Source of the DNA: an uncultured delta proteobacterium
GTDB taxonomy: Bacteria; Desulfobacterota; Desulfomonilia; Desulfomonilales; Desulfomonilaceae
DNA: 64,000 nt
Assembly (NCBI GenBank): GCA_963789265.1
Contig: CAWBKB010000001.1
Coordinates: 2,208,001 to 2,272,000 of the forward strand
Direction: 5' to 3'
The notes under the pieces are model-generated. The model saw nothing but the letters and a program-made list of their open reading frames with translations, was not told the origin of the DNA and did not search any database. A program made the position numbers and the translations under genes. Shown here piece after piece: positions 1 through 40,761 of this stretch (its first letter is position 1; every line of letters begins with the position of its first letter).

Positions 1-2
1 AG

Positions 3-704
3 GAAACTCCGTTTCATTACTGTCCCGGATGCGGCCACAGCATCATACATCGTCTGGTGGCCGAGGTAATAGATGAAATGGGAATCAGGGAGCAAACAAT
101 AGGCGTGCCCCCCGCAGGTTGTGCGGTTCTGGCTTACAACTACTTTGATGTGGACATGGCTGAAGCGCCTCACGGCAGGGCCGCAGCAGTGGCAACCGGA
201 ATCAAGAGGGTTCTTCCGGATCGCATAGTGTTCACATATCAGGGCGATGGCGATATAGCCGCCATAGGGACGGCTGAGACGATTCATGCAGCGAACCGCG
301 GTGAACGAGTCACCTCCATTTTCGTCAATAATGCTGTTTACGGGATGACCGGCGGCCAAATGGCACCCACCACCGTGCCGGGACAAGTGACAACTACCAC
401 TCCTGGCGGGAGAATCCCTTTGAGGGACGGCAACCCTCTGGATCTCAGCGAGATGCTGGCGGTGGCTGTCGGAAGTGTCTATATCGAGAGAACTTCCGTT
501 ACCAGCCCGAAAAACATCCTGAAAACCAGGAAAGCGATAAAGAAGGCTTTCACAGTTCAGATCGAAGACAAAGGTTTTTCCCTGGTGGAAATCCTTTCGC
601 CGTGTCCTACAAACTGGAAGATGACGCCTGTGGAGGCGGCCCGCTGGGTGGATGAAACCATGACGAAAACATTCCCGCTGAAGGTGATAAAGGATGTTGC
701 TTAA
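3..704 (+). CDS. 2-oxoacid:ferredoxin oxidoreductase beta subunit (TPP-binding), 5'-truncated by window edge
   Basis: Frame is open from nt 3 (..FHYCPGCGH..); GDGD...NN TPP motif, YGMTGGQ, SPCPT. Confidence 0.93.
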   Translation, partial: ETPFHYCPGCGHSIIHRLVAEVIDEMGIREQTIGVPPAGCAVLAYNYFDVDMAEAPHGRAAAVATGIKRVLPDRIVFTYQGDGDIAAIGTAETIHAANRGERVTSIFVNNAVYGMTGGQMAPTTVPGQVTTTTPGGRIPLRDGNPLDLSEMLAVAVGSVYIERTSVTSPKNILKTRKAIKKAFTVQIEDKGFSLVEILSPCPTNWKMTPVEAARWVDETMTKTFPLKVIKDVA

Positions 705-1239
705 GATAATATTTTCAGGCTTCGGCGGCCAGGGCGTTCTCATGATGGGATACGTACTGGCTGTAGCGGGAATGAACGAGGACAAACACGTCACATTCCT
801 GCCCGCTTATGGTGCGGAAGTGCGAGGTGGAACCGCCAACTGTACAGTGGTGGTCTCCGATGAGGAAATCGCTTCCCCCATTGCATCCTCGCCGGAGTTT
901 GTCGTTGCCATGAATTATCCTTCCATGATCAAGTATCAGAACATGGTTAAGACCGGCGGGACACTGTTTCTTAACAGTGACTTGATAACGGACCCGTCAG
1001 CCAGGGAGGACATCAAAGTGGTACAAGTCCCGGCGAATACTCTGGCCCACGAAATGGGCAATGACCGCGTCCTGAATATGATCATGCTTGGGGTGGTTAC
1101 GTCGACGGTCGGGATTGTCTCCGAAGAATCCCTTGCTCAAGCTGTGGGGACAGTGCTGGAAGGTAAGAAGCAATCAATGGTGAAGATCAATCAGCAGGCA
1201 CTGGCAAGGGGCTCGCAATATATTTCGTCCTCACGCTGA
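694..1239 (+). CDS. 2-oxoacid:acceptor oxidoreductase gamma subunit
   Basis: SGFGGQGV, YGAEVRGG and NMIMLG motifs; overlaps the beta subunit stop. Confidence 0.93.
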   Translation: MLLKIIFSGFGGQGVLMMGYVLAVAGMNEDKHVTFLPAYGAEVRGGTANCTVVVSDEEIASPIASSPEFVVAMNYPSMIKYQNMVKTGGTLFLNSDLITDPSAREDIKVVQVPANTLAHEMGNDRVLNMIMLGVVTSTVGIVSEESLAQAVGTVLEGKKQSMVKINQQALARGSQYISSSR

Positions 1240-1307
1240 ATGCCGCACAGTTAATTCAGCGGAGGCGTCGGAGCGGCTTTGTTTTTAGTAGAATCCGGAG
1301 GTTCTTT

Positions 1308-1745
1308 ATGAAGACTGTGAAGGAAATCGAAATTAGACTTCAAAATAGATCTGGCGTGCTATCGGATATTAGTGAACTGCTCGGAGCGAACGGCATCAAT
1401 ATCTTGGCCTTGACCTTGAGGGCCGAAGGAGAAATGGGCAAGCTCAATTTCGTGGCCACGGATCCCGCTCGAGTGATGAACATACTGGCGAGCGCGGGCT
1501 ACGATCCGAAACTCAAGGAGATTATAGCGGCCGAGGCTCCTCACCATCCGGGAGGTCTCAATGCCGTGTTGAAGCCTCTCAAGCTTGCAGGCGTCAATAT
1601 TGAATATCTCTATTCCTGCATTGGCTGTCAGAGACCGGGGGACAGGACGATAATCCTGCTTGGTGTTGATAATCTCGAAGCCGCGCATGAGGCCCTGACC
1701 CGAGATTGGATTCAACTCTACGGGGAGGAGTTGCACAATTTTTAA
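1308..1745 (+). CDS. ACT domain-containing protein
   Basis: Two ACT-like repeats (NRSGVL..I..LLG.NGINI; PGGL..VL..L..AGVNIEY); GGAGG RBS. Confidence 0.85.
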   Translation: MKTVKEIEIRLQNRSGVLSDISELLGANGINILALTLRAEGEMGKLNFVATDPARVMNILASAGYDPKLKEIIAAEAPHHPGGLNAVLKPLKLAGVNIEYLYSCIGCQRPGDRTIILLGVDNLEAAHEALTRDWIQLYGEELHNF

Positions 1746-1915
1746 AACCTGTTGGCAACCCGATCTGCGGATCGAGAAATACAGCGCTTCTCTGCAAAGA
1801 GCAGCACAGTGAGATAAGATTCTGACCCTACCAAGCCGAGTCCCTTCCGCATAAATGCCTTGAGCTCAATCCCGGGCCGTGAACGGTTGCCGAAGCTGCC
1901 ATCGGCATCATACCG

Positions 1916-2059
1916 ATTTGCTTTCAAACAAGTGAGAATGGGGCGATAACAAAGGGCACTGACCTGGCGCCATGATGGGGCTCAGGTCAGTGGCACCCAA
2001 CATCCAGTCAAGAGATCGGGTCCTGGGTGCCACGGATCTGGGCTTTGTCAGATCCGTGC
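1916..2059. repeat. Copy (reverse orientation) of modular TIR/MITE-like repeat family
   Basis: Reverse complement matches 18170-18300 and 21641-21780 (GGATGTTGGGTGCCACTGACCTGAGC...CCAGGTCAGTGCC...TCACTTGTTTGAAAGC). Confidence 0.85.
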
Positions 2060-2278
2060 CGTATTTCCTTGATTGTTCACCGTTTGATCGCGCACTGGCA
2101 TCAGATCATGATCTTTGTGGGAAAAACCCCTTGGTTAATAGTGTGTGGGCATTCGCTTACGCGCGCGAAAAGATCGTGATTGCGAGCCCCGCGGCACGCG
2201 GGATTTCACTCCTCGCAATTGTAGAGGGCAGAAGATTCCCCGCGTAAGCGAACGGGCACAATCGCATGATTATAAAAC

Positions 2279-2326
2279 TTGACAACGGTTCGGGTAAAGT
2301 GGTAGTGACTGAATGAATCATTCATT
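2279..2326 (+). promoter_or_regulatory. Putative sigma-70 promoter (TTGACA 2279-2284) with palindromic operator AATGAAT-C-ATTCATT (2312-2326)
   Basis: 7-1-7 inverted repeat; a near-identical palindrome occurs at 4756-4770. Confidence 0.65.
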
Positions 2327-2584
2327 ACAAACCCAGGTTTTCTTACAACCGCCGAATCCTCGGAGGGTCATAAGCGAGAGGAATTAGGAATTACGGGAAT
2401 GTCAAACCAGAAGCTCTGTACGAGACGGTGAACTTGAAATTCACCAGAGTAGAAGCCGTAATTGGCACTTTTCCGATCCCCCGGCGCCGAGAGGGTCGAG
2501 CATGGTTGAGGCTGCCAAAAGGCAGTACAGCGCTTACCTGCCTTAGGGCATCTTTTTCGATTCTTTTTGGATCGGGCGGAAGAG

Positions 2585-2712
2585 ATGAAGAGATTTCCTT
2601 CTCTCCTGTTGGGTGTGCTGGTCATCGCAGTATCACCGCGCCCGCGTTTGCATGGGAATTCGCCATGACGGGCGAGACCGTATTCCCGTATCGCTACTTT
2701 GCACGGCCGATG
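2585..2712 (+). pseudogene. N-terminal remnant of a secreted porin-like protein (same style as 26150-27964)
   Basis: MKRFPSLLLGVLVIAV, then a frameshift into APAFAWEFAMTGETVFPYRYFAR; compare ASPGYAFELNLTGSWIWGYDYF. Confidence 0.5.
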
Positions 2713-2953
2713 AGTTTTGGCGGGTCGCTCGGTGGAGTCCACGCGCATGGCTCTTCCGCCGAAGGCGCGGATGCTTCAATTCAAGACGAACACGTCCGGC
2801 TCCATCCTGAAAAGCGAAAACTGTGGTGTCGTGGTCGAAGGAGCAGATCTCGGCGTACAATTACCTCGGGCTAATCGAGTTCGTTGAGTGGCGCCTATTG
2901 CCGGAACAGGAACCGGCAAAGTATGAGAAACTTTGAGTAAAGGAGGAAGATCG

Positions 2954-3940
2954 ATGAGTGCAGCCAAAATCAATACCGTGCTGGGGCAGATCTCTCCTGC
3001 GGAGTTGGGTGTGACCTTAGTTCACGAACATATGATGACGGGGTTCCCAGGCTGGGAGGGTGACCGAACCATAGCTCCCTTTAATCATCAGGCAGCGGTT
3101 GAGAACGGTGTGACGCTTCTCCAACATCTCAAGGGCCTTGGCCTGAGGACTTACGTTGATGCGACCCCCGTCGACTGCGGCAGGAACGTTGAAGTACTGA
3201 AAGAAATCTCGGAAAAATCCGAAATGAACATCATTTGTTCCACTGGGTATCACTTCGAAGGACTTGGATCTCCGACTTATTGGAAATTCCGCGCCAGCAT
3301 GGGAGACGTAAGAGAGGAGCTTTACGAACTCTTTGTGACGGAGGTGACGGTAGGCATACGGCGCTCGGGGATCAGGGCCGGCGTTATCAAGGTGGGGACA
3401 AGCAAGAGCTACATCACTGACTACGAGAAGCTAATGCTGGGCACGGCGGCTCGGGTCCAGAAAGAAACAAACGTACCCATCATCACTCATACAGAAGAAG
3501 GCAGCCTGGGGCCCGAGCAGGCAGAGTTTCTCATCGCGGCCGGCGCGAATCCCAAAGGTATTCAAATTGGTCACATGAGCGACAACCTTGATATCGCATA
3601 TCAAGTCAGGACGCTTAATCACGGAGTATACGTCGCATGGGACCGCATGGGTCTTGAGGTACTAGCGAGCTGCCCCAGAGATGCCGATCGGTATGCCGCA
3701 ATGCTCGACCTGATTGCCAAGGGTTATCACGATCGACTCCTGATTTCTCATGACTCGACATGTACGTGGTTGGGCCGGCCGCCTAATGTGCCGGCGCGGG
3801 TGTTGGAATTTGTCGCCAACTGGCACCCCACCCATTTGTTCAATAACATCATCCCTGCCCTGAAAAAAGGAGGGGCAAGCGATGATCACATTAAGACCAT
3901 CATTGAAGACAACCCCCGTCGTCTCTTTGAAGGCAAATAA
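2954..3940 (+). CDS. Phosphotriesterase-like lactonase/amidohydrolase
   Basis: HEH, carboxylated-Lys position (VIKVG), THT, GHM and SHD metal ligands; AGGAGG RBS before ATG 2954. Confidence 0.9.
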   Translation: MSAAKINTVLGQISPAELGVTLVHEHMMTGFPGWEGDRTIAPFNHQAAVENGVTLLQHLKGLGLRTYVDATPVDCGRNVEVLKEISEKSEMNIICSTGYHFEGLGSPTYWKFRASMGDVREELYELFVTEVTVGIRRSGIRAGVIKVGTSKSYITDYEKLMLGTAARVQKETNVPIITHTEEGSLGPEQAEFLIAAGANPKGIQIGHMSDNLDIAYQVRTLNHGVYVAWDRMGLEVLASCPRDADRYAAMLDLIAKGYHDRLLISHDSTCTWLGRPPNVPARVLEFVANWHPTHLFNNIIPALKKGGASDDHIKTIIEDNPRRLFEGK

Positions 3941-28794: not shown

Positions 28795-29499
28795 TTATTG
28801 AAAGAAGCTCTCATCGCAGCTAATTCCGGCTTCTTCAAACTCTTTATACAGTTTGGTCAGCCTGTCGTTAGCAATACGTGCCTGCCGAGGTTTTTCTTCC
28901 GTTTCATGGTCCGTGGCATAACAGGCAAGACACCATTGGCACTGGTGCGTTGCCCCGAGACTCATCACGTCAAAGTTTCCGACCAAGAAGGTCCGGCGCT
29001 CTTTACGATTTCCGAAGTTTTCGACTGCGGCGAGAAACTCCAGGTTGACCTGCATAGAAACCTTATTGCCCTCTCTTGCGATATGAATGTAATCCTCCAA
29101 CGTGAGGATCGGACCTTGGGTGTCCTTGAAATCCTGAAATCTTACCACCATGTCGTTCAGGGAAAAGAGCTCGGTTTCTATAAGAATCCCTGCTTCATTC
29201 AGCGCTCGATAATCCTTCTGTAAATATCTGTTGGCAATCATTACAGCCTGGGATACGTGAGGACACAGATTGTGCGGGCAGCCTCGAGCATAGCATTTTC
29301 TGAAGCTGAATTCTTTGCTGTCTACAGTTCCGGAAAAACGACAGAAGAAGAGGATCGCTCGATATCCGTAGCTTGTATGAGTGAAATCGACTTCGTTGAT
29401 TTCAAAGGACGGGAGACAGACGATTGTTGCCCCTCTTTTTCCATGAGCAACAAGCTCGCCAATGCGAATGGGAGGTTCGAGACCAATCGTTTGATTCAT
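28795..29499 (-). CDS. Cys-rich hypothetical protein
   Basis: Long ORF with CYARGCPHNLCPH and CQWCLACY; start uncertain. Confidence 0.65.
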   Translation of the reverse strand: MNQTIGLEPPIRIGELVAHGKRGATIVCLPSFEINEVDFTHTSYGYRAILFFCRFSGTVDSKEFSFRKCYARGCPHNLCPHVSQAVMIANRYLQKDYRALNEAGILIETELFSLNDMVVRFQDFKDTQGPILTLEDYIHIAREGNKVSMQVNLEFLAAVENFGNRKERRTFLVGNFDVMSLGATHQCQWCLACYATDHETEEKPRQARIANDRLTKLYKEFEEAGISCDESFFQ

Positions 29500-29638
29500 G
29501 GCTTGTGCCTCTGTGTCGAATGAAGGTGTCGTCCGTCCGCGGTTTCCCTCCGGATCGCTGGAGGCCCACACGCGATGTAGAGAAGCTGATTCCAGACCTC
29601 ACGGGGTCTCCTCCGACCAGCCTATGAAGAAATCACCG

Positions 29639-30007
29639 TTAATAGTTCAGAACCGCCTGCGAGTTAAGGCACTCACTCAAAATTGTGGCGCCGGCGACCA
29701 CTTCCGATTTATCAATCAGGTCGAATGGCTCAATGTTGCGCTCCTTGATACAGGGAGAGCAGACAAGGATTCTTCCTCCCAGCTCCAGAAAGGAATCCAT
29801 CAATTTCTTCAACGGATCGAAACCACCCGCATGCACGCTTTCAGCGTACCCCTTCTTTGCCAATAAGACTCCATACCCCTGGAGAACAATAATTCCCGGC
29901 TCGTCCATTGCCAGAGCCGCGTTGCCAAGGGCGAATGGGATGGTGGCCCTCTCAGGGTCATCTCCGGCATGTGTTGCAATGATTACGACGCCTTCTTTTT
30001 GTTCCAT
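29639..30007 (-). CDS. DsrE/DsrF-like family sulfur-relay protein
   Basis: THAGDDPERATIPF, LQG.GV..., VCSPC, VAGA motifs. Confidence 0.85.
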   Translation of the reverse strand: MEQKEGVVIIATHAGDDPERATIPFALGNAALAMDEPGIIVLQGYGVLLAKKGYAESVHAGGFDPLKKLMDSFLELGGRILVCSPCIKERNIEPFDLIDKSEVVAGATILSECLNSQAVLNY

Positions 30008-30071
30008 GAATAAGGCCCTTTCTTGTGCTAAATTTTGTTCGGCGACAGCCTCGCAAGGCCTGCGCTTTAGT

Positions 30072-30365
30072 TCACTCTTCGCAACCATCCAAATAATCAA
30101 TCAACCCTTTGAGACGCGGGCGGGCCAAGCCATAACGAACGACCGTTCCCTCGCGCTCGCAAACCAAAATCCCATGCGTCCGCATAATCGAGAGTTGATG
30201 AGAGACATCCGGCTGCGAGGCCCCCAGACGGTTAGCCAAGCCGGTGACGTTCTCCCCGCCTTTACTGAGAATTGCCAAAATGCGGAGGCGCAGAGGATGA
30301 GCAACTGCCTTGACGATTTCGGCCACGTCCTCGGCTCGCTCCAGGTTGTCTATGAGACTGTTCAT
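30072..30365 (-). CDS. ArsR/SmtB family transcriptional regulator
   Basis: KAVAHPLRLRIL, SQPDVSHQL..MR..G, R.G..V.Y. Confidence 0.9.
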   Translation of the reverse strand: MNSLIDNLERAEDVAEIVKAVAHPLRLRILAILSKGGENVTGLANRLGASQPDVSHQLSIMRTHGILVCEREGTVVRYGLARPRLKGLIDYLDGCEE

Positions 30366-30379
30366 CGGCGTAATTTTAC

Positions 30380-30921
30380 TCAGATGAATAGCTGATTGCT
30401 CGAATTGGCAGCGTGGGCCAAAAAGCTGGCGACACCAACGTATTCCACGCCGGGATACTCGATAAGCTCTTCTCGTCTGAAGCCCATGAGGTCCATGGAC
30501 ATCTCGCAGACGCAGATCTTCACGTCAAGCTCAGCCGCTTGGGCGAAGAGCTGCTCCAGGTCCGGGGCCCCTTTTTCTTCATCAGACCCTTCATCATTGC
30601 CGTTCCCATGCCGCCCATATTCATCTTGGACAGCTTCAACTTGTTGTAACCCGTGGGCAGCATCCAGCCGAACATCCTCGACATCAAGTTCTTTCCTCCA
30701 ACTTGGGCCTGTGGCTTGCGCAGTGCAGCGGTGCCCCAAAAGGTAAAGAAAAGCACTACCTTCATGTCCATGGCAGCCGCGCCCACAGCGATGATCATCG
30801 CGGCCAGCACCTTGTCGAGATCGCCGGAGAATATGACCATCGACATCTTGTCTTCCCTGGGCGGTCCCAATTCATCGACTTTTTGCTTCAGATCGTTGAA
30901 CTCGGATATGTCTAAACTCAT
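30380..30921 (-). pseudogene. DsrE2-like (DsrE/DsrF/DrsH) protein split by a one-base frameshift near 30570
   Basis: FSGDLDK..FFTFWG..LSKMNMGGMG..MMKGLMKKK in one frame; APDLEQL..CEMSMDLMG..GVASFL in another. Confidence 0.85.
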
Positions 30922-31162
30922 TGTCACTCCTTACGTAATCATTCAGTCTTGTGGGGCAGTCCCGCGAGGCGCGGGATGGCCTGCCGAGGAAACCCCTGTT
31001 CAATGGCGGGCTAGAAAGCCCACCCCACGAAGCCACCGGCAAATTCCGGCTGTAACTGAATGCATACCTCCTTATAGCTCGAGCCATTTGCTTCGCGGTC
31101 CGCTAGTAGTTGGCACAATGCTCACAGGGAATATTCACTCCATACAAATGCTTTCCCTGCTG

Positions 31163-32311
31163 CTACACTTGACGTTGAGCCCTTAACTCATGCGTGAACA
31201 GGGCCACAGGCCGAAGAATTGCATGAGCGAATTTCGTAAATGGCAGTAGCAGCACGAGCATCATTGCTCCTACCAGGTGGACGAGGAACACAACATACTC
31301 CCCGACCGAACCCAAGGGCAGATAGACGGAAATTTCCACGACGAATCCAGTCAGAGTCACTCCCCATAACAATCCGAGAAACAGCCAGTCTGAGAGCATA
31401 GAGTGGGAGGCGTACTTGTCGGGCCGTGTTATCCTGTTGAACAGTGCTATACTCGTCCCGTAGAGAACTAGAAGACCGGCTACAGTGCCCAACAATCGCA
31501 TTGGATAGTATATGGGGACCTGTGAGAAGGGCTCCTTGAAAAGCAAATCAAGCCCGGTCGCTGCCAGCAGTCCGAGGAACCCCCACATAATCGACAAATG
31601 AACAAAGCGGCGGCGCAGATACCATGGCCCGGGCTCAGTGTCGCACCGATCGAAGCGAGTTTGGCCGACTGCTTCGAGAACCGCCGATTTGAGTGCTGTC
31701 CAGAGACTGGACCTGTCCCCTTCCCTATCTTGGACCGGAACAGCATCATTTGCCGATCCGCCAAGAGCCTTGTTGAGACGTGTGACCATGGTGACCACGC
31801 TTAGAAGGGCAACTAAACCCGCGATTGCAATCACCGTTTGTCCGGTATAATGGATGTAACGGACATTGATGAAGCTCCCCAGTTTCAGTGCCTCCGCGGG
31901 CATAGAGCCGTACCCCGTCAGCATGATCAGAGCGAGTATCGCGGCGATACAGATGAGAAAACACACGGCAAAAGTCTTGGAAGTGTAGAGACGCCGACCC
32001 AGCGTTGTGGGATCATAATGAGATATGACGTACCTTCGGACGGCTGCCACGAACTCGGCGGGTTCGGCCTGCCTCGGACAGGTGGCCGAACAATCTGCGC
32101 AATAATAGCAGAGCCACATCTCTTTGCCGGCGGCCAAACGATCCTTCAAACCCAGTTGTGCGTACCTGATGAATTTTCGTGGAAACGCAGCCCTCCCTTC
32201 AGAAAGAGAACATACCGCAGTGCAGTTTCCGCAATTGAAGCAGGCATTTATATCTGAAGCCCCGTAACGGGCCAGTTCAGTCATGAACCCAGGATCTACC
32301 GTGTGGGACAT
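31163..32311 (-). CDS. HdrC/QmoC-like protein: two 4Fe-4S motifs plus a multi-TM (putative heme b) membrane domain
   Basis: CFNCGNCTAVC, CYYCADCSATCP; TM helices with His (HLSIMWG, HLVG) and LPFTKFAH. Confidence 0.85.
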   Translation of the reverse strand: MSHTVDPGFMTELARYGASDINACFNCGNCTAVCSLSEGRAAFPRKFIRYAQLGLKDRLAAGKEMWLCYYCADCSATCPRQAEPAEFVAAVRRYVISHYDPTTLGRRLYTSKTFAVCFLICIAAILALIMLTGYGSMPAEALKLGSFINVRYIHYTGQTVIAIAGLVALLSVVTMVTRLNKALGGSANDAVPVQDREGDRSSLWTALKSAVLEAVGQTRFDRCDTEPGPWYLRRRFVHLSIMWGFLGLLAATGLDLLFKEPFSQVPIYYPMRLLGTVAGLLVLYGTSIALFNRITRPDKYASHSMLSDWLFLGLLWGVTLTGFVVEISVYLPLGSVGEYVVFLVHLVGAMMLVLLLPFTKFAHAILRPVALFTHELRAQRQV

Positions 32312-32314
32312 CGT

Positions 32315-32596
32315 CTACTCCTTCAGCAGCACGTACAGGAAGTGGTCGCCGCTCTGTTCGCCTTCAGCCACCTTCCCATATTTCCTCATGGACGTTAGAT
32401 GCCACAGCACTCGGTGAGAAGGGATGCCGGTTTCCAGGGCTATTTCCGGGACCGTTTTGGGGCCCGTGCCAAGTACTTCGGTGAGCTTCTTCCTCAATCC
32501 CCTGGTCTCTTTGACTCGCTGCGTGACACCATCGATTATTGACTTCCGAGCCTCTCTGAGCGCCTTGAGTTTTTCTCTTTCAGCCTGGTCCGTCAT
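32315..32596 (-). CDS. Small winged-helix protein
   Basis: GPKTVPEIALETGIPS..VLWHL..MRKYG.V. Confidence 0.75.
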   Translation of the reverse strand: MTDQAEREKLKALREARKSIIDGVTQRVKETRGLRKKLTEVLGTGPKTVPEIALETGIPSHRVLWHLTSMRKYGKVAEGEQSGDHFLYVLLKE

Positions 32597-32614
32597 CCTC
32601 TTTCTCCAATGCTG

Positions 32615-34535
32615 TTACCGGGCTGCAATGGCATCCACCATGGCATCGAACTGGTCAAGGGTCCAACCATTGACGTTCATGGCCCGGTGCGGACATACCG
32701 CGGCGCAAGCTCCGCACCCCCTGCAAAGCGCCGGATTCACCAAGGCCTTCTGCTCCACCTTGTCGTCCAGTTCCAGATCGGTCAGCGTCAAAGCGCCCCC
32801 ATAACTGCACTCGGCCAGACAAAGACCACAGCCATCGCAAAGTGCGGGATCGACTCGGGCAACGAAGGGTTCTAATTCGACATATCCTTTGACCAGTGCT
32901 ATGGCAGCCTTGGAAGCGGCAGCCGCTGCGGAAGCACAACTCTCTGTGATGTCTCGCGGGCCCTGGGAAGTTCCGGCCAACAGCAGGCCGTTCACCGACA
33001 TTTCCACCGGCCTGAGTTTGGGATGCACTTCTTGCAGGAACCGGTCGGCACCTACCGGCAGCTTGAATACGTCGACCAGATCCGAGATGTCGTTGGGCAT
33101 CATACCTACGGACAGGACGACCAGGTCGACGAGGGCTTCCACGTCCTCGCCAAAGGTGAGAGTGTCTTTCACCCTCACCTTTAGAGGACGCTTGGAGGTT
33201 GCTCCTGCCTTTTCGACCACAGGAAGCAAGTCGGGGGTGAACCTGAAGAACAGAACCCCCTTCTGGGAAGCCTTTTCATAGTAATCTTCGTGGCCGCGGC
33301 CGTACGAGCGGATGTCCTGGTAGTACTCGGTACACGTGCACATCGGGAAATCGGTCTTTGATCTCGTTGGCCGCCTGAAGTGTCGCCGTGCAGCAGACTC
33401 TGGAACAATAGTTGTTTACTCTACCGTCGGGCTGCGGTTCGTGAATTCCGTCTACCTGTCTGCTACCCACACAATGGATCAAGGCAATATCTCTTACCGG
33501 ACGCCCTTGGAACTCCAGCCGTCCACCGGTGGGTCCGTCGGGAGAGAGCATCTTAATGAGATCCGGCAAAGTTATCACTCGCGGGGATTCTCCGTATCCG
33601 TACTCTCCGCTCCTGGGCTCGTAATGCTTGAAGCCCGTCGCCATCACCACGACACCGGCTTTGATCTCGAGGATGTCATCCTGGGATAAATTCCAGTCTG
33701 ACCGGACTGCACAACCCTCGAATGGGCGAAAGATCACCTTCTTGTTGACGGCACCGATTTCGCTGGGGCGAGCTTCTGCTCTTCTTCGCACTTGGACCAG
33801 AAAATCCCCTATCGTGCCGCTGCTGGAGGCGACTTCGGCTTGAGTGTAGACAGTGATGTTCGAGTCATCGATCACTTCTTCCACTAGTTCCGCGAGCAAA
33901 TCCCCGGCCTTTTCTTCCGTTGGATAGACTCGATCAAGCTGCGCCGTTTGCCCTCCCAGATACGGAGATTTTTCAATGACGGTAACGCCAATTCCTTGTT
34001 TTGACAGCGTTCGAGCCGCGGTGAGACCGCTAATCCCACCGCCTATGATGACAGCGTGTGGATGAGCTTCTATTCGGATCGGCTCCAGCGGCTCAAGAAG
34101 CGCGGCTTTGGCAACCGCGGCCGCCACCAGTCTGAGGGCCTTTTGGGTGGCCTCGCCGGCATCATGACTGTGCGCCCAACTTACTTGCTCTCTGATATTT
34201 GCGTGTTCGTATAGAAACGGGTTATGTCCTTGCCTTGTCAAGGCATTGCGGAAAGTCACCTCATGAAGTTTTGGCGAACAAGATGCCACTACGACTGCAT
34301 CAAGGTCTTCGTTGCGGAGGTCTTCGAGGATCAGATCTTGCCCGGGATCCGAGCACATGAACATGTTTGTACGGGCGACTTTGACCTGTGGTATCTTTTG
34401 CACTTCTTCGGCAACTTGCTTGACGTCCACCACATCCGAGATGTTTCCGCCGCAGTGGCAAATATAAACACCTATCCGAGGCTCTTTTGACTGAATGGTC
34501 TTCGATTGGTTCTTCACTTGCGCTTCCTCGGGCAT
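32615..34535 (-). pseudogene. HdrA/QmoB-like FAD/Fe-S flavoprotein with a one-base frameshift near 33330
   Basis: GVYICHCG.NI, FMCSDPGQ, ANIREQ, GGGISG, CVGSR, YCSRVCC; continues in another frame as YYQDIRSYG..GPRDI..CDGCGLC..CRGCGAC. Confidence 0.9.
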
Positions 34536-34553
34536 TTCGTACCTCTTGATTCA

Positions 34554-34725
34554 GACTAAGTACAGCATTTCATAAATGCGGTCTGGTATGCTGGTAGCGT
34601 CGCCGTCATTCCCGCGTACACGGGAATCCAGTCAGGACCCCGGATCGGAGTCCGGGGTGACCGCAGCGAACAGGATTGCAACCACCCACCACATTGCCCG
34701 AAACAAGGCTCCGTACTTAAGAAAT
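34554..34725. repeat. Intergenic repeat cassette between the two hdrA-like genes
   Basis: Shares 15851-15879 motif and GTCATTCCCGCGTAC.CGGGAATCCAG / CCCCGGATCG.AGTCCGGGGTGAC palindromes. Confidence 0.75.
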
Positions 34726-34755
34726 CGAGCATAAGGAACCACTCTGCTTGGAAGC

Positions 34756-36111
34756 TCAGCCCACCGCTTGTTCGGCAAGCACTTCTTCACTCTGGTCAGT
34801 TGCCCCGGCGATGAGTGTGGAGATCGGCCCCAGGGATGCAATATAATTTGCTGTCTCCATAGCGGCCGCACCAGCCTTTGCAATAGTATCCACAATGTCC
34901 TTGGGTCCGCCCGCAGTCCCTGCCACAAAGACCCCCTCTTGATCGGTAAGGGCCGGTGCCATTTTGGGTCTAGGACACAAGACAAAGCCGTCATCCGCTT
35001 GCCCCACCCGGATGAATTCCAGCGGGTTGCACCCGGGTAACATGCCCAACGAAAGAACGACCATGTCGTGATTTCGCTCCTCAACACGACCGTCCTCTTC
35101 CATAAGCTCTACACGAACGTTCAGATTGTGGTCCTCGCCTTCAGTGATTTTCCCTACCTTGGCTTTCACGAACTCTATGCCCATGGCCTTTGCGTTTTGA
35201 TAGAATTCTTCGTACCCCTTGCCGAAAGCGCGAATGTCCATGTAGTAAATCGTCACATCCACCAGCGGAAGAGCCCCCGAGAGTAACATCGCCTGCTTTA
35301 TTGCGTACATGCAGCAGACTCGGGAGCAGTAAGGAACGCCAAGGCTCCGATCGCGTGAACCGGCGCACTGCACGTAGGCGATGCTGTCAGGAATTTTGCC
35401 GTCCGAGGGCCGGATTACCCTCCCATAAGGGCCATTAGGCGACAACAGACGCTCCATCTGGAGCGAGGTCAAGACGTTATGGCTCTCCTCGGGGAGATAC
35501 TGTCTCTTGGCTTCCTTCAGACTGAGCTGGAATCCTGTGGCAAGAATGACGCTCTTGGCTTCAACGATCACTTCCTCGGGCTGTTGGTAATAGTCCACTG
35601 CATGGGTGGGACAGACCTTTTCACATGACCCGCAGAGCATGCAATTATCCACATCCAACAGTGCCTTCTGCGGGATAGCGGTTGCGAAAGGCACATAGAT
35701 GGCTTTCCTGGCTCCCATTCCGCCTTCAAACTCATGCGGCAAACCCACAGGGCAAACGTACTCACACTGGCGACAACCTATGCAGAGCTTTTCGTCCACG
35801 TATCTTGGTTTTCGTGTGAGATTGGCTCGGAAGAGTGGACCCTCTCGTGTGATGGATCTGACTTCCGTGTAGGTAAAGATTTGTATGTTCGGGTGATGAG
35901 CCGCGGCAGCCATCCGTGGCGTTGTGATACAGCTTGCGCAGTCCAGAGTAGGGAAGACTTTGCTCAGGGCTATCATCACCCCGCCTATGCTTGCCTCCTT
36001 TTCCACGACAGCTACTCTGAACCCCTGATCGGCCAGATCCAGGGCTGAGGTGAGCCCGGCTATACCTCCGCCGACGACAAGAGCGTCATAGTGTTCGGCC
36101 AGCGTTTTCAT
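34756..36111 (-). CDS. HdrA/QmoA-like FAD/Fe-S flavoprotein
   Basis: GGGIAG, KVFPTLDCASC, CIGCRQC..CP, CMLCGSC..CP, CAGSRD, YCSRVCCMYAIK, GPKDI. Confidence 0.92.
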   Translation of the reverse strand: MKTLAEHYDALVVGGGIAGLTSALDLADQGFRVAVVEKEASIGGVMIALSKVFPTLDCASCITTPRMAAAAHHPNIQIFTYTEVRSITREGPLFRANLTRKPRYVDEKLCIGCRQCEYVCPVGLPHEFEGGMGARKAIYVPFATAIPQKALLDVDNCMLCGSCEKVCPTHAVDYYQQPEEVIVEAKSVILATGFQLSLKEAKRQYLPEESHNVLTSLQMERLLSPNGPYGRVIRPSDGKIPDSIAYVQCAGSRDRSLGVPYCSRVCCMYAIKQAMLLSGALPLVDVTIYYMDIRAFGKGYEEFYQNAKAMGIEFVKAKVGKITEGEDHNLNVRVELMEEDGRVEERNHDMVVLSLGMLPGCNPLEFIRVGQADDGFVLCPRPKMAPALTDQEGVFVAGTAGGPKDIVDTIAKAGAAAMETANYIASLGPISTLIAGATDQSEEVLAEQAVG

Positions 36112-36545
36112 TTTGCTAAGTGCTCTATCTCCCCTTTGCGGGGGGAGCCGATTTCTTTGAGAAGGCTGTTCATCTGGTTGACTTCCTTAAGGAACGCTTT
36201 GGTACAGACGGTGCATATAGCGGTAAGTTTGATCCTTCGACGGTCGTATCCTTCCTGCTTCATCCTCCCGGTGACCCTGTCCATTCGCGCGGCAAAACGA
36301 CGATACGCGCCTTGGTAGGGACATTCCTCACCACACGACATAACGATGATGCCGCCTATTCCTTTATCCAGGGTCCGAAAGTAGAAATCTTCCGGAAGCA
36401 TTACAGGAGCCGGAATTCGAAGTATGTAAGTATTGGGCGGATAGGACAGGTGTGCCTGTCCGACCGTATCGGCCCCGGGGTAGGCGCACGCTATTGTCGC
36501 CAAGATGAGAATCTTCGCCTGGGCCGCGTCTGATGAAGTTGCCAT
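36108..36545 (-). CDS. MvhD-like 2Fe-2S subunit
   Basis: CAYPGAD..G...YP, C.EECPY.G, G.D.RR; adjacent to hdrA. Confidence 0.82.
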   Translation of the reverse strand: MATSSDAAQAKILILATIACAYPGADTVGQAHLSYPPNTYILRIPAPVMLPEDFYFRTLDKGIGGIIVMSCGEECPYQGAYRRFAARMDRVTGRMKQEGYDRRRIKLTAICTVCTKAFLKEVNQMNSLLKEIGSPRKGEIEHLAK

Positions 36546-36556
36546 GTCTCTGCCCG

Positions 36557-36811
36557 CTATTTCTTTCTCGTAACAAAGATTCGATCGTACCCCTCGGCTT
36601 CAAGCACTCCCATGAACTCATGACCGACCTTCTTTGCCCACGCAGGGATGTCGCTCTTGGTCGCCGGATCGTTGGAAAGCACTTCCAGAACGTCGCCCAC
36701 CTTGACTTGCCCGATCCCCTTCTTTGCTTCGAGCAACGGTCCCGGACATGCGCTACCCCACGCGTCAACCACCTTGGCGGCGGTCAGGTTGGCCAATTCT
36801 ACGTTACTCAT
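36557..36811 (-). CDS. TusA family sulfur carrier
   Basis: VVDAWGSACPGP, GDVLEV..DP....DIPAW....GH; AGGAGG RBS. Confidence 0.9.
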   Translation of the reverse strand: MSNVELANLTAAKVVDAWGSACPGPLLEAKKGIGQVKVGDVLEVLSNDPATKSDIPAWAKKVGHEFMGVLEAEGYDRIFVTRKK

Positions 36812-36862
36812 GGATATTTCCTCCTGGATCATTTCGTCTTGGCGCTCGGTTTCTGATGAATA

Positions 36863-36878
36863 AGCAATTGCCATGCCA
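36863..36878 (-). promoter_or_regulatory. Sigma-54 (-24/-12) promoter of the tusA-hdr operon
   Basis: TGGCATG-GCAA-TTGCT on the minus strand, ~50 nt before tusA. Confidence 0.85.
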
Positions 36879-36997
36879 TCTCATGAACCGGACCGTTGAC
36901 TTGAGCTGAAACCAATAAAATTAGCCAGATAGAAGATGCATCCCGGTCAATGGCTCTTCACGGCACCATGTTCCATGTCAATCTTTCTTGAGAAATT

Positions 36998-37032
36998 GGT
37001 TGACAAATGTTAACCTGTAAACCTGGGTTTAC
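36998..37032. promoter_or_regulatory. Candidate enhancer (UAS) palindromes for the divergent bEBP
   Basis: GGTTGAC-AAAT-GTTAACC and GTAAAC-CTGG-GTTTAC, ~120-155 nt upstream of the -24 box. Confidence 0.55.
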
Positions 37033-37066
37033 GTTAACGTTTAAGCTCGGCAGTTGAGGTGCCTCG

Positions 37067-38422
37067 ATGAATCAGCAAGAGATGGTCGGCTTCTGGAAAA
37101 CCATCGTCGATACAATGATGAACGGCCTGATAGTGGTTGACGCAGACGGGATGATAGTCGCGGTCAATCATGCCACTGAAGAAATCACCGGCTATGAGCG
37201 GGAGGAACTCATCGGAAGCCCCTGCACGATTCTAAACTGCGACCAATGCCCTGCCCGTGTGCCGGAAGGCGACTTTACATGCGATCTGTTCGAGACGAAA
37301 CAAATCGAGAAGCGCAGATGTACTCTCACGAGAAAAGATGGCACCGTGCTGCCTGTAGTGAAGAATGCCAGAGTCCTCAGCGGGAATGATGGAAAGGTCA
37401 ATGGTGGCGTAGAGACCATCACGGATCTCAGTGAGATAGTTACCAGAGATCTGAAAATAGCCAGATTGAGTTCAATATTGAAGGGCAAAGACAGCTTTCA
37501 CGAGATCATTGGGAAATGTCGAGCAATGCAAGATGTCTTTGATTTGATCACCGATGCGGCTCAATCGGATGCGCCCATTATCATCTACGGTGAAAGCGGC
37601 ACAGGCAAAGAACTCGTCGCGTCCGCGATTCATAAACTGGGCAGACGTAAGGCCGGTCCTTCGGTCAAAGTGAATTGCGCGGCCTTAACCGAATCACTCT
37701 TGGAAAGCGAGCTATTCGGACATGTCAAGGGCGCTTACACTGGAGCTGACAGAAACAGAAAGGGGCGTTTTGAAGTGGCGGACGGAGGGAATATTTTTCT
37801 CGATGAGATCGGAGACATCCCGCTTTCCATGCAGGTGAAAATATTGCGGGTTTTGCAAGAAAAAGAATTCGAGCGAGTTGGAGATAGTAAACCAATAAGA
37901 GTGGATGTCAGAATCATCTCGGCGACTCATCGAGATCTGTCCGAAATGATTGCTCGGAATGAGTTCAGGGAGGATTTGTTCTATCGTCTCAATGTTATCC
38001 CAATCCATTTGCCTCCTTTAAGAAAAAGGCGGGAGGACCTTCCGTTGCTGATCGAACATTTCATCGAGGAAAATCGCTTGAAAACCGGCAAAAACATAAT
38101 CGGGATCAGCAGCCGGGCCATGAACTCGCTGATATCCTACTCCTGGCCGGGCAATATCAGGGAGTTGCTCAATGCTATTGAATATGCTTTTGTGGTCTGT
38201 CGGCAGGCACGCATAGAAGAGCCTCACCTCCCCGAAGCTATCAAGAATGGAAAATCATCGCTTTCCTCGGCTAAAGACGGTGAAGGGGAAAGGAACCGGA
38301 TCGTCGAAGCTATCAGGCAAGCTGGCGGCAAAAAACTTGAGGCGGCCCGACTGCTCGGGATTACCAGGCAAGCTCTCTGGAAAAAAATGGCCAAGTTGGG
38401 GATCAAAAAGGAATTTGCCTGA
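37067..38422 (+). CDS. PAS-domain sigma-54 enhancer-binding protein (Fis family)
   Basis: GESGTGKE, ESELFGH.KGAYTGA, FLDEIG, WPGNIREL; C-terminal HTH. Confidence 0.95.
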   Translation: MNQQEMVGFWKTIVDTMMNGLIVVDADGMIVAVNHATEEITGYEREELIGSPCTILNCDQCPARVPEGDFTCDLFETKQIEKRRCTLTRKDGTVLPVVKNARVLSGNDGKVNGGVETITDLSEIVTRDLKIARLSSILKGKDSFHEIIGKCRAMQDVFDLITDAAQSDAPIIIYGESGTGKELVASAIHKLGRRKAGPSVKVNCAALTESLLESELFGHVKGAYTGADRNRKGRFEVADGGNIFLDEIGDIPLSMQVKILRVLQEKEFERVGDSKPIRVDVRIISATHRDLSEMIARNEFREDLFYRLNVIPIHLPPLRKRREDLPLLIEHFIEENRLKTGKNIIGISSRAMNSLISYSWPGNIRELLNAIEYAFVVCRQARIEEPHLPEAIKNGKSSLSSAKDGEGERNRIVEAIRQAGGKKLEAARLLGITRQALWKKMAKLGIKKEFA

Positions 38423-39630: not shown

Positions 39631-39787
39631 TCTCGGTCGGTTCTTTTGTTTTTTTTGCTGGGAGTATCTTCTTTAGGGCTTCGTCAAGTTTTTCTTCTGC
39701 GTCTTCTCCCAAATGTTCTTCAGCAACCTTTACGAAGCGCGCATATTGCTCCGCGTCGTCTGGCTTCGGTTTTTTCTTTCTTCCCAT
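39623..39787 (-). CDS. 54-aa ORF translationally coupled to the transposase (absent from the ORF track)
   Basis: TAATG overlap; MGRKKKPKPDDAEQYARFVKVAEEHLGEDAEEKLDEALKKILPAKKTKEPTENA. Confidence 0.65.
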   Translation of the reverse strand: MGRKKKPKPDDAEQYARFVKVAEEHLGEDAEEKLDEALKKILPAKKTKEPTENA

Positions 39788-40761
39788 TATCGCATAACCC
39801 CGATTTGCCTATCAGTCGTTTGATAGGTGAGACGCTTTCCCACTACGCCCCTTAGCAGTATATCGGCTCTCTCAGTATCGCTAAAGCCTTTACGGGCGGA
39901 TCTCTTCTTGCTGTTGGGCCTGCCACAACGGTTATTATACCGAAAATCGAATTCGGCAAGGTAACGATGGAGATGCTGTTTTTTGCAATGCTGATAGATG
40001 CCCTTCATTCCTCGCTTAAAGATCGAAAAGAAGCCTTCAGCGCAATTGACGTGGACGGTGCGGTCTTCCCTGGACACATATTCCCCGTTACTGTGTTGAA
40101 CCATGCCATGCTCGGCAAAGTTTTCGTCAATGTGGCGATACTGACCGGCATCGTCAGTCATAACTCTTGCTTCTCGGTCTATATTCTCCTGTAGAATCGG
40201 AACGATGGTCTTTGCGTCAACGCTGTCCACGACCATACTTCGTGAACAACCAGACTCACGGTCAATGAGAGAAAGGATTTTGCGCTTGTGCACGTACCCT
40301 TTCTTCACTTCTTTACCGGGCTCATTCCAAAGAAAAGTTTCGTCAGATTCCACGGCCCCGCCATTTGCACCAAAAGGGGTCAGGTCACCGCTTCTCATGG
40401 CTTCTCGGATGCGATGACTCATGAACCAAGCACTTTTGAGAGTAATCCCCAACATCCTGTGGAGTTGATTTGAGGAAATACCCTTCTTTGATGCGGCAAT
40501 GAGGGTCATAGCCTGAAGCCACAATCGAAGCGGAATATGGCTTGATTCAAAGATGGTTCCGATCTTCACAGAAAACTGCTTTCGGCACACATAACACTTG
40601 TAAAGCCCGATTCGGGTGCTATTGCCCTTCATCTTACTTATACGCTCAGTAGCACCACAATGGGGGCACACCGGACCGTTAGGCCATATCCGGGCTTCAA
40701 TATACGCGTATGCAGCCTCTTCGGTTTGGAAGTGTGGCTTAGAGATGGTTGCGTGCCTCAT
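39787..40761 (-). CDS. IS1595 family transposase
   Basis: Zn ribbon CPHC..CYVC, GTIFE.SHIPL..W, E.DET, TD, N..EGFFS..KR, HL..YL.EF.FRYN. Confidence 0.95.
   Translation of the reverse strand: MRHATISKPHFQTEEAAYAYIEARIWPNGPVCPHCGATERISKMKGNSTRIGLYKCYVCRKQFSVKIGTIFESSHIPLRLWLQAMTLIAASKKGISSNQLHRMLGITLKSAWFMSHRIREAMRSGDLTPFGANGGAVESDETFLWNEPGKEVKKGYVHKRKILSLIDRESGCSRSMVVDSVDAKTIVPILQENIDREARVMTDDAGQYRHIDENFAEHGMVQHSNGEYVSREDRTVHVNCAEGFFSIFKRGMKGIYQHCKKQHLHRYLAEFDFRYNNRCGRPNSKKRSARKGFSDTERADILLRGVVGKRLTYQTTDRQIGVMR

Follow-up and report, generated by a model that had tools for sequence, protein, structure and literature searches.

The 64,000-nt stretch of contig CAWBKB010000001.1 analysed here (the window), from an uncultured bacterium of the Desulfomonilaceae, carries an operon for a Qmo-like, HdrA-type electron-transfer complex packaged with genes for the sulfur carriers TusA and DsrE. 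We propose that this operon is controlled by sigma-54 and that its products form a quinone-linked complex acting on TusA/DsrE-bound sulfur, a reading to which we give about an even chance of being correct. Qmo and Hdr complexes hold a central place in sulfate reduction, sulfur oxidation, and methanogenesis, and how they work is still under debate. The family to which the window operon belongs is a real, widespread, and uncharacterised variant of the Qmo/Hdr family, which keeps the electron-transfer core and exchanges adenylylsulfate (APS) reductase (Apr), HdrB, and hydrogenase for sulfur-carrier proteins. It is widespread in anaerobes that would escape notice as sulfur cyclers in current gene-marker surveys, and if the sulfur on the carriers is turned over, the contribution of soils, sediments, and guts to hidden sulfur cycling would be underestimated. 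The window copy is a useful one, as it coexists with a canonical Qmo in a single sulfate-reducing soil bacterium, so that the two can be distinguished, and appears to have a clear sigma-54 switch with a PAS-domain activator whose inducing signal can be sought.

Organization of the operon

The operon and the divergent gene for a bacterial enhancer-binding protein (bEBP) were examined within positions 28795-38422 of the window. Open reading frame (ORF) lists and family searches place a single tight run of genes on the minus strand, spanning 28795-36878, with the bEBP gene diverging from it. The genes that make up the complex and its carriers are as follows:

36557-36811 (ORF open to 36874), minus strand: tusA, 84 aa from the ATG at 36811 (PF01206, 70 bits)
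36108-36545, minus strand: MvhD-like subunit, with a CxxC motif at C111 and C114 (PF02662, 73 bits)
34756-36111, minus strand: hdrA1, 451 aa, HdrA-type flavoprotein core with an inserted 2x[4Fe-4S] ferredoxin domain (NCBIfam HdrA2, 481 bits)
32615-34535, minus strand: hdrA2, HdrA-type flavoprotein with an N-terminal cluster domain and a C-terminal 2x[4Fe-4S] domain (NCBIfam)
32315-32596, minus strand: winged-helix protein, 93 aa, between hdrA2 and the qmoC-like gene (predicted fold)
31163-32311, minus strand: qmoC-like membrane subunit, HdrC-type 2x[4Fe-4S] plus NarI/HdrE-like haem-b domain (NF038018, 232 bits)
30380-30927, minus strand: dsrE2-like sulfur carrier (PF13686 on both ORF pieces)
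30072-30365, minus strand: ArsR/SmtB-family regulator (NF033788, 72 bits)
29639-30007, minus strand: dsrE-family carrier, probable start at 30007, ORF open to 30100 (PF02635, 48 bits)

An earlier note, made from the sequence alone, had listed the run from tusA to dsrE together with the divergent PAS-bEBP gene, and Pfam and NCBIfam recover every one of these genes where it had placed them. Its observation that the operon lacks HdrB and Apr is also borne out: neither the CCG domain of HdrB and HdrD (PF02754) nor Apr was found by Pfam and NCBIfam in a scan of 13 proteins. What it had missed is that hdrA2 and the dsrE2-like gene are each read as two ORFs, and that the tusA ORF, at 105 aa, overlaps the promoter. 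An AGGAGG precedes the ATG at 36811, which is most likely the true start of tusA and gives a protein of 84 aa.

The two interrupted genes bear on whether the operon is intact. In hdrA2, two overlapping ORFs are separated by an extra C at 33329 relative to L013, the closest relative among the best 80 related loci (86-90% identical), and score 355 bits (N-terminal piece) and 181 bits (C-terminal piece) in the family searches. The dsrE2-like gene also consists of two overlapping ORFs, being one base short in an A5G4C4 run near 30567-30571. The hdrA2 orthologue of L013 is uninterrupted at 639 aa, as are the dsrE2-like orthologues of L013, L014, and L016. Contigs from soil-metagenome run X1, which may be the sample from which the window was assembled, do without the base at 33329 and have one more at 30571, restoring both frames; these contigs cover half of the sequence words of the stretch, and each difference is carried by one contig at a depth of 4.4. 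The dsrA gene of the same genome matches its family model as two neighbouring pieces that lie in different frames (contig C6:339556-340795, model positions 1-257 and 255-401), probably owing to another assembly consensus error. Because the X1 contigs and the orthologues are intact, and dsrA is likewise split, we attribute both breaks to consensus errors and regard the operon as intact. The intact frames in the X1 contigs and orthologues also rule out a pseudogene. An X1 contig lacks one further base, at window position 36855 in the tusA leader downstream of the promoter, a probable third consensus error.

Subunit composition and cofactor motifs

The first flavoprotein, HdrA1, matches solved HdrA chains with approximately 400 bits over residues 9-421 and the QmoA of its own genome with only 197 bits. 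It has 14 conserved cysteines, including two ferredoxin-type motifs in the inserted domain. HdrA2 is without this insertion; its conserved cysteines comprise four each in the N-terminal HdrA domain and the core, together with those of two C-terminal ferredoxin motifs. Given this distribution of the inserted domain on one side and the N- and C-terminal domains on the other, the domains of a single methanogen HdrA are split between HdrA1 and HdrA2.

The qmoC-like gene encodes a protein with Pfam Fer4 dicluster and Nitrate_red_gam domains, in which eight cluster cysteines, a further cysteine (C223), and four histidines (H154, H238, H345, and H363) are conserved, a pattern from which two b haems are predicted. 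Its score against the NF038018 qmoC model, 232 bits, lies under the cut-off of 300.

The MvhD-like subunit keeps the fold of its namesake, as its AlphaFold model (predicted local distance difference test, pLDDT, 87) superposes on the MvhD chains 7bkb_F, 5odc_D, and 8rvu_F with template modelling (TM) scores of 0.81-0.90 and Foldseek E values of 2e-11 to 2.5e-10. Its cysteines are disposed differently. The CxxC at residues 111-114 is found in 62/62 cluster-linked rows of the alignment and in 0/8 canonical rows, the latter being two stand-alone MvhD proteins of this genome, two QmoB C-termini, and four hydrogenase-linked MvhD proteins. Conversely, the five cysteine columns of canonical MvhD, which we take to be the [2Fe-2S] ligands, are filled in 6-8 of the 8 canonical rows and in 0, 18, 31, 19, and 48 of the 62 cluster-linked rows. 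The [2Fe-2S]-site cysteines of MvhD/FlpD are thus not conserved in this subunit across the 62 rows.

Each of the carrier proteins has conserved cysteine. TusA scores 70 bits against a cut-off of 28.6, and its C22-P23-G24-P25 is invariant in 58/58 cluster-linked rows. Two further TusA genes lie elsewhere in the genome: one adjoins a second, intact dsrE2-like gene (181 aa) at C4:273520-274307, and the third tusA of the genome is at C3:598634-598834. The two pieces of the dsrE2-like protein of the operon, with a conserved cysteine in a 'CVCEMS' motif, match Pfam PF13686 with 104 and 61 bits; against the NF047629 DsrE2 equivalog they reach 32 and 37 bits, short of the cut-off of 210. Because the PF13686 match holds and the NF047629 cut-off is missed, we call this protein DsrE2-like and not a characterised DsrE2. 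In DsrE, a CxxC (VCSPC, C114 and C117) is invariant in 14/14 rows.

The small winged-helix protein contains no cysteines, has 504 homologues, and is modelled as a generic ArsR/SmtB-like winged helix (pLDDT 92). A fold search returned only generic ArsR/SmtB-like and Z-alpha winged helices, none at E <= 0.001. The model is compatible with two roles, and the protein may be either a subunit or a regulator.

Separation from the canonical Qmo of the same genome

The genome (6.06 Mb in 9 contigs) contains a canonical aprBA-qmoABC cluster. Its qmoC (443 bits, cut-off 300) and aprA (868 bits) are approximately 3.7 kb apart on contig 7 and enclose the canonical qmoA and qmoB; this contig is different from that of the window operon. 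The genome also carries dsrAB, with dsrA on contig 6. With both aprBA-qmoABC and dsrAB located elsewhere, the window complex is a second Qmo-type complex, and the possibility that it is the only Qmo of the genome is ruled out by the canonical cluster.

Phylogeny of the subunits, which the earlier note had proposed as a check, separates the two complexes. In a QmoC tree of 82 rows, including 78 related-locus copies, the canonical copy of this genome forms a long branch outside all 78, and these fall into three well-supported clades. An HdrA tree of 83 rows, drawn from 33/80 loci chosen for breadth plus 14 rows from the window's own genome, resolves an HdrA1 clade (30 rows, support 100), an HdrA2 clade (30 rows, support 99), and a separate clade of canonical QmoA and QmoB (support 99). 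The HdrA1 and HdrA2 clades are congruent in their internal structure. HdrA1, HdrA2, and the QmoC-like subunit therefore all fall outside the canonical QmoA, QmoB, and QmoC clades.

A further Hdr-like cluster is present in the genome at C1:1945696-1949605, encoding three proteins: a short HdrA-like one of 352 aa, one of 576 aa with ferredoxin-type matches, and one of 405 aa whose N-terminus is HdrC-like.

Relation to described complexes

The window complex probably corresponds to what has been named 'type II Qmo', an HdrA-like Qmo found with or without Dsr/Apr whose function was left open (Neukirchen et al. 2023, ISME J, PMC10504309, which cites Chernyh et al. 2020). As described in the available portion of that paper, the flavoproteins of type II Qmo are nearer to true HdrA than to bacterial QmoA/B and are accompanied by a QmoC-type membrane subunit; it is assigned to the sulfate reducers Ammonifex degensii and Vulcanisaeta moutnovskia and framed as part of sulfate reduction. 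The window operon agrees with this description, with HdrA1 scoring 481 bits against NCBIfam HdrA2 versus 197 against its own genome's QmoA, and with Dsr/Apr mostly lacking in the other hosts surveyed. In the table for A. degensii KC4, QmoA and QmoB are followed by one unlisted accession and then by QmoC, at a remove from the dissimilatory genes (PMC10504309), which fits the hdrA-hdrA-small gene-qmoC order in the window. The likeness is one of description and tabulated gene order, the A. degensii and V. moutnovskia proteins lying outside the best 80 loci.

The earlier note had ranked the operon as its best candidate for an undescribed system. This was overstated insofar as type II Qmo has a name in print (PMC10504309), a term that we found only there within the literature searched, and it stands for the linkage to carriers and the altered MvhD-like subunit. 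TusA, DsrE, a separate MvhD-like gene, and a winged-helix gene go unmentioned for type II Qmo in the available portion of PMC10504309, and the word TusA is missing from the one supplement of it that was available. The available portions of PMC13490349, PMC12998232, PMC6018796, and PMC12142623 do not describe the operon. More broadly, we found no published description of the TusA/DsrE link, the altered separate MvhD, or the winged-helix gene in a search that did not cover subscription reviews.

Compared with canonical (type I) QmoABC, which occurs in sulfate reducers and green sulfur bacteria, the window complex shares two HdrA-related flavoproteins, a QmoC with motifs for a pair of [4Fe-4S] clusters and two b haems, a predicted quinone link, and the lack of HdrB. 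It differs in that its QmoC is below the family cut-off (232 versus 300), its flavoproteins belong to other clades, and its MvhD, which in type I is the C-terminal domain of QmoB, is encoded separately and has altered cysteines. Further, its family has no aprBA linkage and has sulfur-carrier genes attached.

Flavin-based electron bifurcation is the established logic of the methanogen Hdr module. The methanogen MvhAGD-HdrABC and Fdh/Elp-Hdr complexes (PDB 5odc, 7bkb, and 8rvu) resemble the window complex in the HdrA core (approximately 400 bits), the MvhD fold (TM 0.81-0.90), and the HdrC-like N-terminus of QmoC. Unlike them, the window complex has no HdrB, hydrogenase, or formate dehydrogenase, possesses a haem-b membrane anchor, distributes the HdrA functions over two unlike subunits, and does not conserve the [2Fe-2S] ligands of MvhD.

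The sHdr-LbpA system, with its TusA/DsrE3 cascade, also joins an Hdr-type complex to TusA and DsrE carriers and often to an ArsR regulator, according to the available portions of PMC11094781 and PMC6067878. By comparison, HdrB1/B2 (CCG) and a lipoate-binding protein are absent from the 13 window proteins scanned, and the window HdrA is of the long, ferredoxin-domain type, scoring 116 bits against the sHdrA structure 6tjr versus approximately 400 against methanogen HdrA. The window complex is also predicted to be membrane-bound through QmoC. Clades, bit scores, and gene content thus all keep the family apart from canonical Qmo, Hdr, and sHdr, as the earlier note had supposed for Qmo and sHdr.

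Conservation across genomes

A scan of one genome per species found at least 587 stretches that encode relatives, of which the best 80 loci were kept and annotated with the window proteins. Counts were restricted to the 58 loci in which 6 kb or more of sequence precedes qmoC; 22 loci were too short for this. The set is conserved as a unit: tusA, the mvhD-like gene, hdrA1, and hdrA2 lie on the qmoC strand in 53/58 loci, and of these 53 core loci, 51 have at least one DsrE-family gene and 38 have the winged-helix gene. The five exceptions are L051 and L057, where the genes are present and their labels altered by frame breaks or fused ORFs; L065, a Syntrophobacter metagenome-assembled genome (MAG) with canonical qmoA/qmoB ahead of a QmoC of the TusA-linked clade; and the archaeal loci L068 and L083. 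The core loci come from at least 11 named phyla: Chloroflexota (16), Bacteroidota (11), Acidobacteriota (3), Armatimonadota (3), Planctomycetota (3), Thermodesulfobacteriota (2), Spirochaetota (2), Myxococcota (2), Ignavibacteriota (1), Verrucomicrobiota (1), and Actinomycetota (1), with eight bearing no phylum name. The gene-neighbourhood check that the earlier note had called for thus shows the linkage of tusA and dsrE to be kept across phyla. Both of the outcomes that the note had named as refuting its idea are contradicted: the window subunits lie outside the canonical QmoABC clades in a genome that has another qmo, and the tusA/dsrE linkage is conserved.

The family is also independent of Apr and Dsr. 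No AprA or AprB gene occurs in any of the 80 related loci (0/80). In a broad selection of 15 other host genomes, aprA and dsrA exceed their cut-offs in one and the same genome, a Syntrophaceae relative (1/15 each), and a DsrC/TusE-like gene is present in 5/15. The other hosts are mostly MAGs, so that the missing aprA and dsrA may partly reflect incompleteness, which tempers this point in support of our proposal. Within the lineage of the window genome, the winged-helix gene was used as a marker in 60 relatives (36 from the same family and 24 from a neighbouring one); it was found in 11/36 of the former, including 1/6 of the same genus, and in 0/24 of the latter. This patchiness makes the operon an accessory trait outside core sulfate reduction.

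These counts bear directly on the suggestion that the complex is an alternative Qmo feeding APS reductase or another enzyme of the sulfate/sulfite pathway, which is the presumed role of type II Qmo in A. degensii and V. moutnovskia. The QmoC architecture is identical in type, the L065 Syntrophobacter MAG pairs canonical QmoA/QmoB with a QmoC of the TusA-linked clade, and type II Qmo was assigned to two sulfate reducers (PMC10504309, available portion). Yet this genome already has aprBA-qmoABC, Apr is absent from all 80 loci and aprA is present in just 1/15 other hosts, and only 11/36 family relatives carry the winged-helix marker, leading us to regard such a role as highly improbable. At L065 itself (L065:6184-11170), QmoA and QmoB score 462 and 822 bits against those of this genome and QmoC is nearer to the TusA-linked clade (234 versus 140 bits), so that the locus looks like a mosaic Qmo.

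Variants and recurring neighbours in other lineages

The HdrA1 of one subtype, which is represented in Bacteroidales, Actinomycetota, Aminicenantes-like MAGs, and some Chloroflexota, is joined in a single protein with a GltD/NfnB-like NAD(P)-binding flavoprotein (residues 157-651, 486 bits against PRK12771). This fusion is predicted to provide HdrA1 with an NAD(P)H site. In two Thermoleophilia MAGs (L052 and L057), two convergent copies of the cassette are present, one with a short and one with a long (GltD-fused) HdrA1; the QmoC match of the second copy is a short HdrC-like piece only.

In archaeal, Elusimicrobia, and Ignavibacteriales loci the genes run qmoC-hdrA-hdrA-mvhD; the MvhD is of the canonical type, and the next gene encodes a VhuG-like hydrogenase small subunit in place of TusA. 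Because the VhuG-like subunit replaces TusA at this place, the arrangement suggests that the MvhD position is where an external redox partner connects. By analogy, the partner at that position in the TusA-linked form would be a sulfur carrier.

Neighbours in other lineages point to sulfur trafficking. Sporadically found near the loci are further DsrE-like genes (15 loci), thioredoxin (6), cysteine desulfurase (6), a YeeE/YedE sulfur transporter (6), NifU (4; NifU_N, including L013), MoaE (3), and TrmO (4), along with LysR (14), Crp (7), and ArsR regulators. In L026, L027, L030, and L033 (about positions 1-3600), genes for DsrC/TusE, an HmcE-like protein, an HmcF/DsrK-like CCG protein, and cysteine desulfurase immediately precede dsrE2-tusA-mvhD-hdrA-hdrA-qmoC; these four Prolixibacteraceae-type loci are the only related loci with a CCG protein, which there belongs to a separate adjoining module.

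Such neighbours could also mean that the complex is a general ferredoxin/NAD(P)H:menaquinone oxidoreductase, possibly bifurcating, whose carriers serve biosynthesis or maintenance (Fe-S clusters, molybdopterin, or thiolated tRNA), for example by releasing sulfide from cysteine-desulfurase persulfide. The recurrence of cysteine desulfurase (6), NifU_N (4), MoaE (3), and TrmO (4) near the loci agrees with this, as do the fusion of HdrA1 with a GltD-like NAD(P)H module in one subtype and the presence of a DsrC/TusE-like gene in only 5/15 hosts. We nevertheless think it quite unlikely, since the biosynthetic neighbours are sporadic and the tusA-mvhD adjacency and DsrE genes are near-invariant, two other TusA genes in the genome are free for housekeeping, the patchy spread among close relatives would be odd for a housekeeping function, and a haem-b quinone module would be costly for cofactor synthesis.

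Proposed mechanism

In our proposal, the MvhD-like protein, HdrA1, HdrA2, the winged-helix protein, and the QmoC-like subunit would assemble into one complex, in which an HdrA1/HdrA2 heterodimer probably mimics the HdrA homodimer and the QmoC-like subunit, with its predicted two [4Fe-4S] clusters and two b haems, would connect to the menaquinone pool. The operon provides its own sulfur carriers (TusA, DsrE2-like, and DsrE) and an ArsR-type regulator. In methanogens, MvhD delivers electrons at the HdrA position that the MvhD-like subunit is predicted to occupy here. Sulfane sulfur, riding on TusA/DsrE as a persulfide or possibly a thiosulfonate, would be handed to the CxxC of this subunit, seated on the HdrA module, and undergo two-electron redox there, most likely reduction to sulfide. 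If true, the MvhD 'wire' has been converted into a thiol-based hand-over site. Electrons would be exchanged with menaquinol via QmoC and probably with a second, low-potential partner via the HdrA flavins, ferredoxin in the window form and NAD(P)H in the GltD-fused variant. The complex as proposed would work without APS reductase and DsrAB.

We infer the transfer from TusA to the CxxC and the net reduction of carrier sulfur from gene content, conserved motifs, and analogy, and the same applies to bifurcation or confurcation by the HdrA pair. The earlier note, which had already suggested a carrier-bound persulfide as substrate and possible flavin bifurcation, is thus supported in part: for the second complex, its separate clades, the carrier linkage, and sigma-54 control. 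Taken to its full extent, the proposal would make this a new flavin-based bifurcating/confurcating respiratory enzyme whose third substrate is sulfur held on a carrier protein, an idea that we consider possible and put forward tentatively. A TusA/DsrE-bound persulfide or thiosulfonate would then pass to the CxxC of the cluster-less MvhD-like subunit, and its low-potential reduction would be driven by the coupled exergonic reduction of menaquinone. Thiosulfonate reduction would profit from bifurcation, and persulfide reduction would not need it; the known potentials settle neither the direction nor the sulfur species. If the bifurcation reading is true, many anaerobes that do not reduce sulfate, here including Bacteroidales, Anaerolineae, Planctomycetota, Armatimonadota, and Acidobacteriota, would have a cytoplasmic means, so far overlooked, of reducing sulfur or thiosulfate and conserving energy.

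Several points weigh against carrier-sulfur reduction as we have set it out. The operon contains no S-S catalytic site of a known type, having neither HdrB/CCG nor a molybdopterin subunit, and the CxxC could belong to a different metal site. A look for isolates, expression data, or biochemistry on the operon found none. The winged-helix protein may be a regulator and not a subunit, because a Bacteroidales variant does without it. Finally, the cysteine desulfurase, NifU, and MoaE neighbours fit a biosynthetic role for the sulfur equally well.

The same complex might also run in reverse, oxidising sulfide or carrier sulfane sulfur in the cytoplasm and passing electrons to menaquinone and, by bifurcation, partly to ferredoxin, with TusA persulfide as the product. 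The S0/HS- midpoint potential lies near the mean of the menaquinone and ferredoxin potentials, which counts in favour of this direction. Qmo/Hdr-type complexes are reversible in principle, and operation of Qmo in both directions has been proposed (PMC13490349, available portion); TusA, DsrE, and ArsR-type regulators also accompany the oxidative sHdr system (PMC11094781, available portion). However, most hosts, judged by organism names, seem to be anaerobes with no obvious sulfur-oxidation pathway, no cysteine-flavin site resembling that of sulfide:quinone oxidoreductase was identified, and the loci are without a downstream enzyme for further oxidation of the persulfide. On balance we consider the oxidative direction unlikely, and retain reduction of carrier sulfur as the preferred reading.

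Promoter and regulation

The region between tusA and the bEBP gene, together with that gene, contains the following features:

37067-38422, plus strand: bEBP gene, with a Cys-rich PAS sensor, an AAA+ sigma-54 activator domain, and a Fis-type helix-turn-helix (HTH) domain (Pfam PF00158, 242 bits, plus PAS_9 and HTH_8)
36995-37045, no strand assigned: conserved intergenic block, candidate enhancer-binding sites (four-locus alignment)
36864-36878, minus strand: sigma-54 type -24/-12 promoter, TGGCATGGCAATTGC (motif search and four-way alignment)

The element TGGCATGGCAATTGC (36878-36864, minus strand) lies approximately 55 nt ahead of the probable tusA start. A lone match of this kind is not significant, because -24/-12 matches with up to two mismatches number 72 in the window against 63.7 expected. 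The three closest orthologous loci among the best 80 (L013, L015, and L016) all have TGGCA[CT]-N5-TTGCT at an equal offset, 63-67 nt before tusA, and all have the divergent bEBP gene (3/3 in each case). No strict -24/-12 match was found in the 52 TusA-bearing loci that lack a bEBP gene (0/52), and three more distant bEBP-bearing loci have no such match directly upstream of tusA. In a four-way alignment of the window with L013, L015, and L016, the -24/-12 element is invariant and its flanks are divergent. The conserved intergenic block adjoins the bEBP start, approximately 120-180 nt upstream of the element, and includes runs such as AACGTTAACGT and AGGTTAAC that are also kept in all four; we infer that this block holds candidate enhancer-binding sites. 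The same genome encodes rpoN (440 bits). Sigma-54 control of the operon, including the -24/-12 promoter that the earlier note had called, is supported because the element and the bEBP gene co-occur, the element is invariant, and rpoN is present.

The PAS domain of the bEBP (37067-37500) has the motif SPCTILNCDQC...CDLF...RRC, whose cysteine pattern C-x5-C-x2-C...C is common to the cluster-linked bEBPs of L013, L015, L016, L070, and L092 and is missing from two other bEBPs in those loci. The domain may be an Fe-S or thiol-based sensor. The ArsR protein encoded in the window has a weaker match to the sulfite-sensing BigR (NCBIfam, 53 bits versus a cut-off of 155). Genes for ArsR are present in many related loci, and their cysteines are not conserved.

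Adjoining genes

One further gene follows dsrE in the same run and possibly belongs to the operon:

28795-29571, minus strand: Cys-rich conserved hypothetical protein, 258 aa (same position in L013, L016, and L092)

This protein has no Pfam or NCBIfam match. In a protein-atlas search all of its scores were below 0.9, and an assignment to the SWIM family, carried by 12% of the members of a single cluster, was not adopted.

The operon is flanked by unrelated genes, with corrinoid methyltransferase and RACo genes on one side and an IS1595 transposase and an acyl-CoA dehydrogenase on the other. The IS1595-family transposase, at 39787-40761, begins approximately 1.4 kb past the bEBP gene, and nucleotide similarity between the window and L013 ends where the bEBP gene ends.

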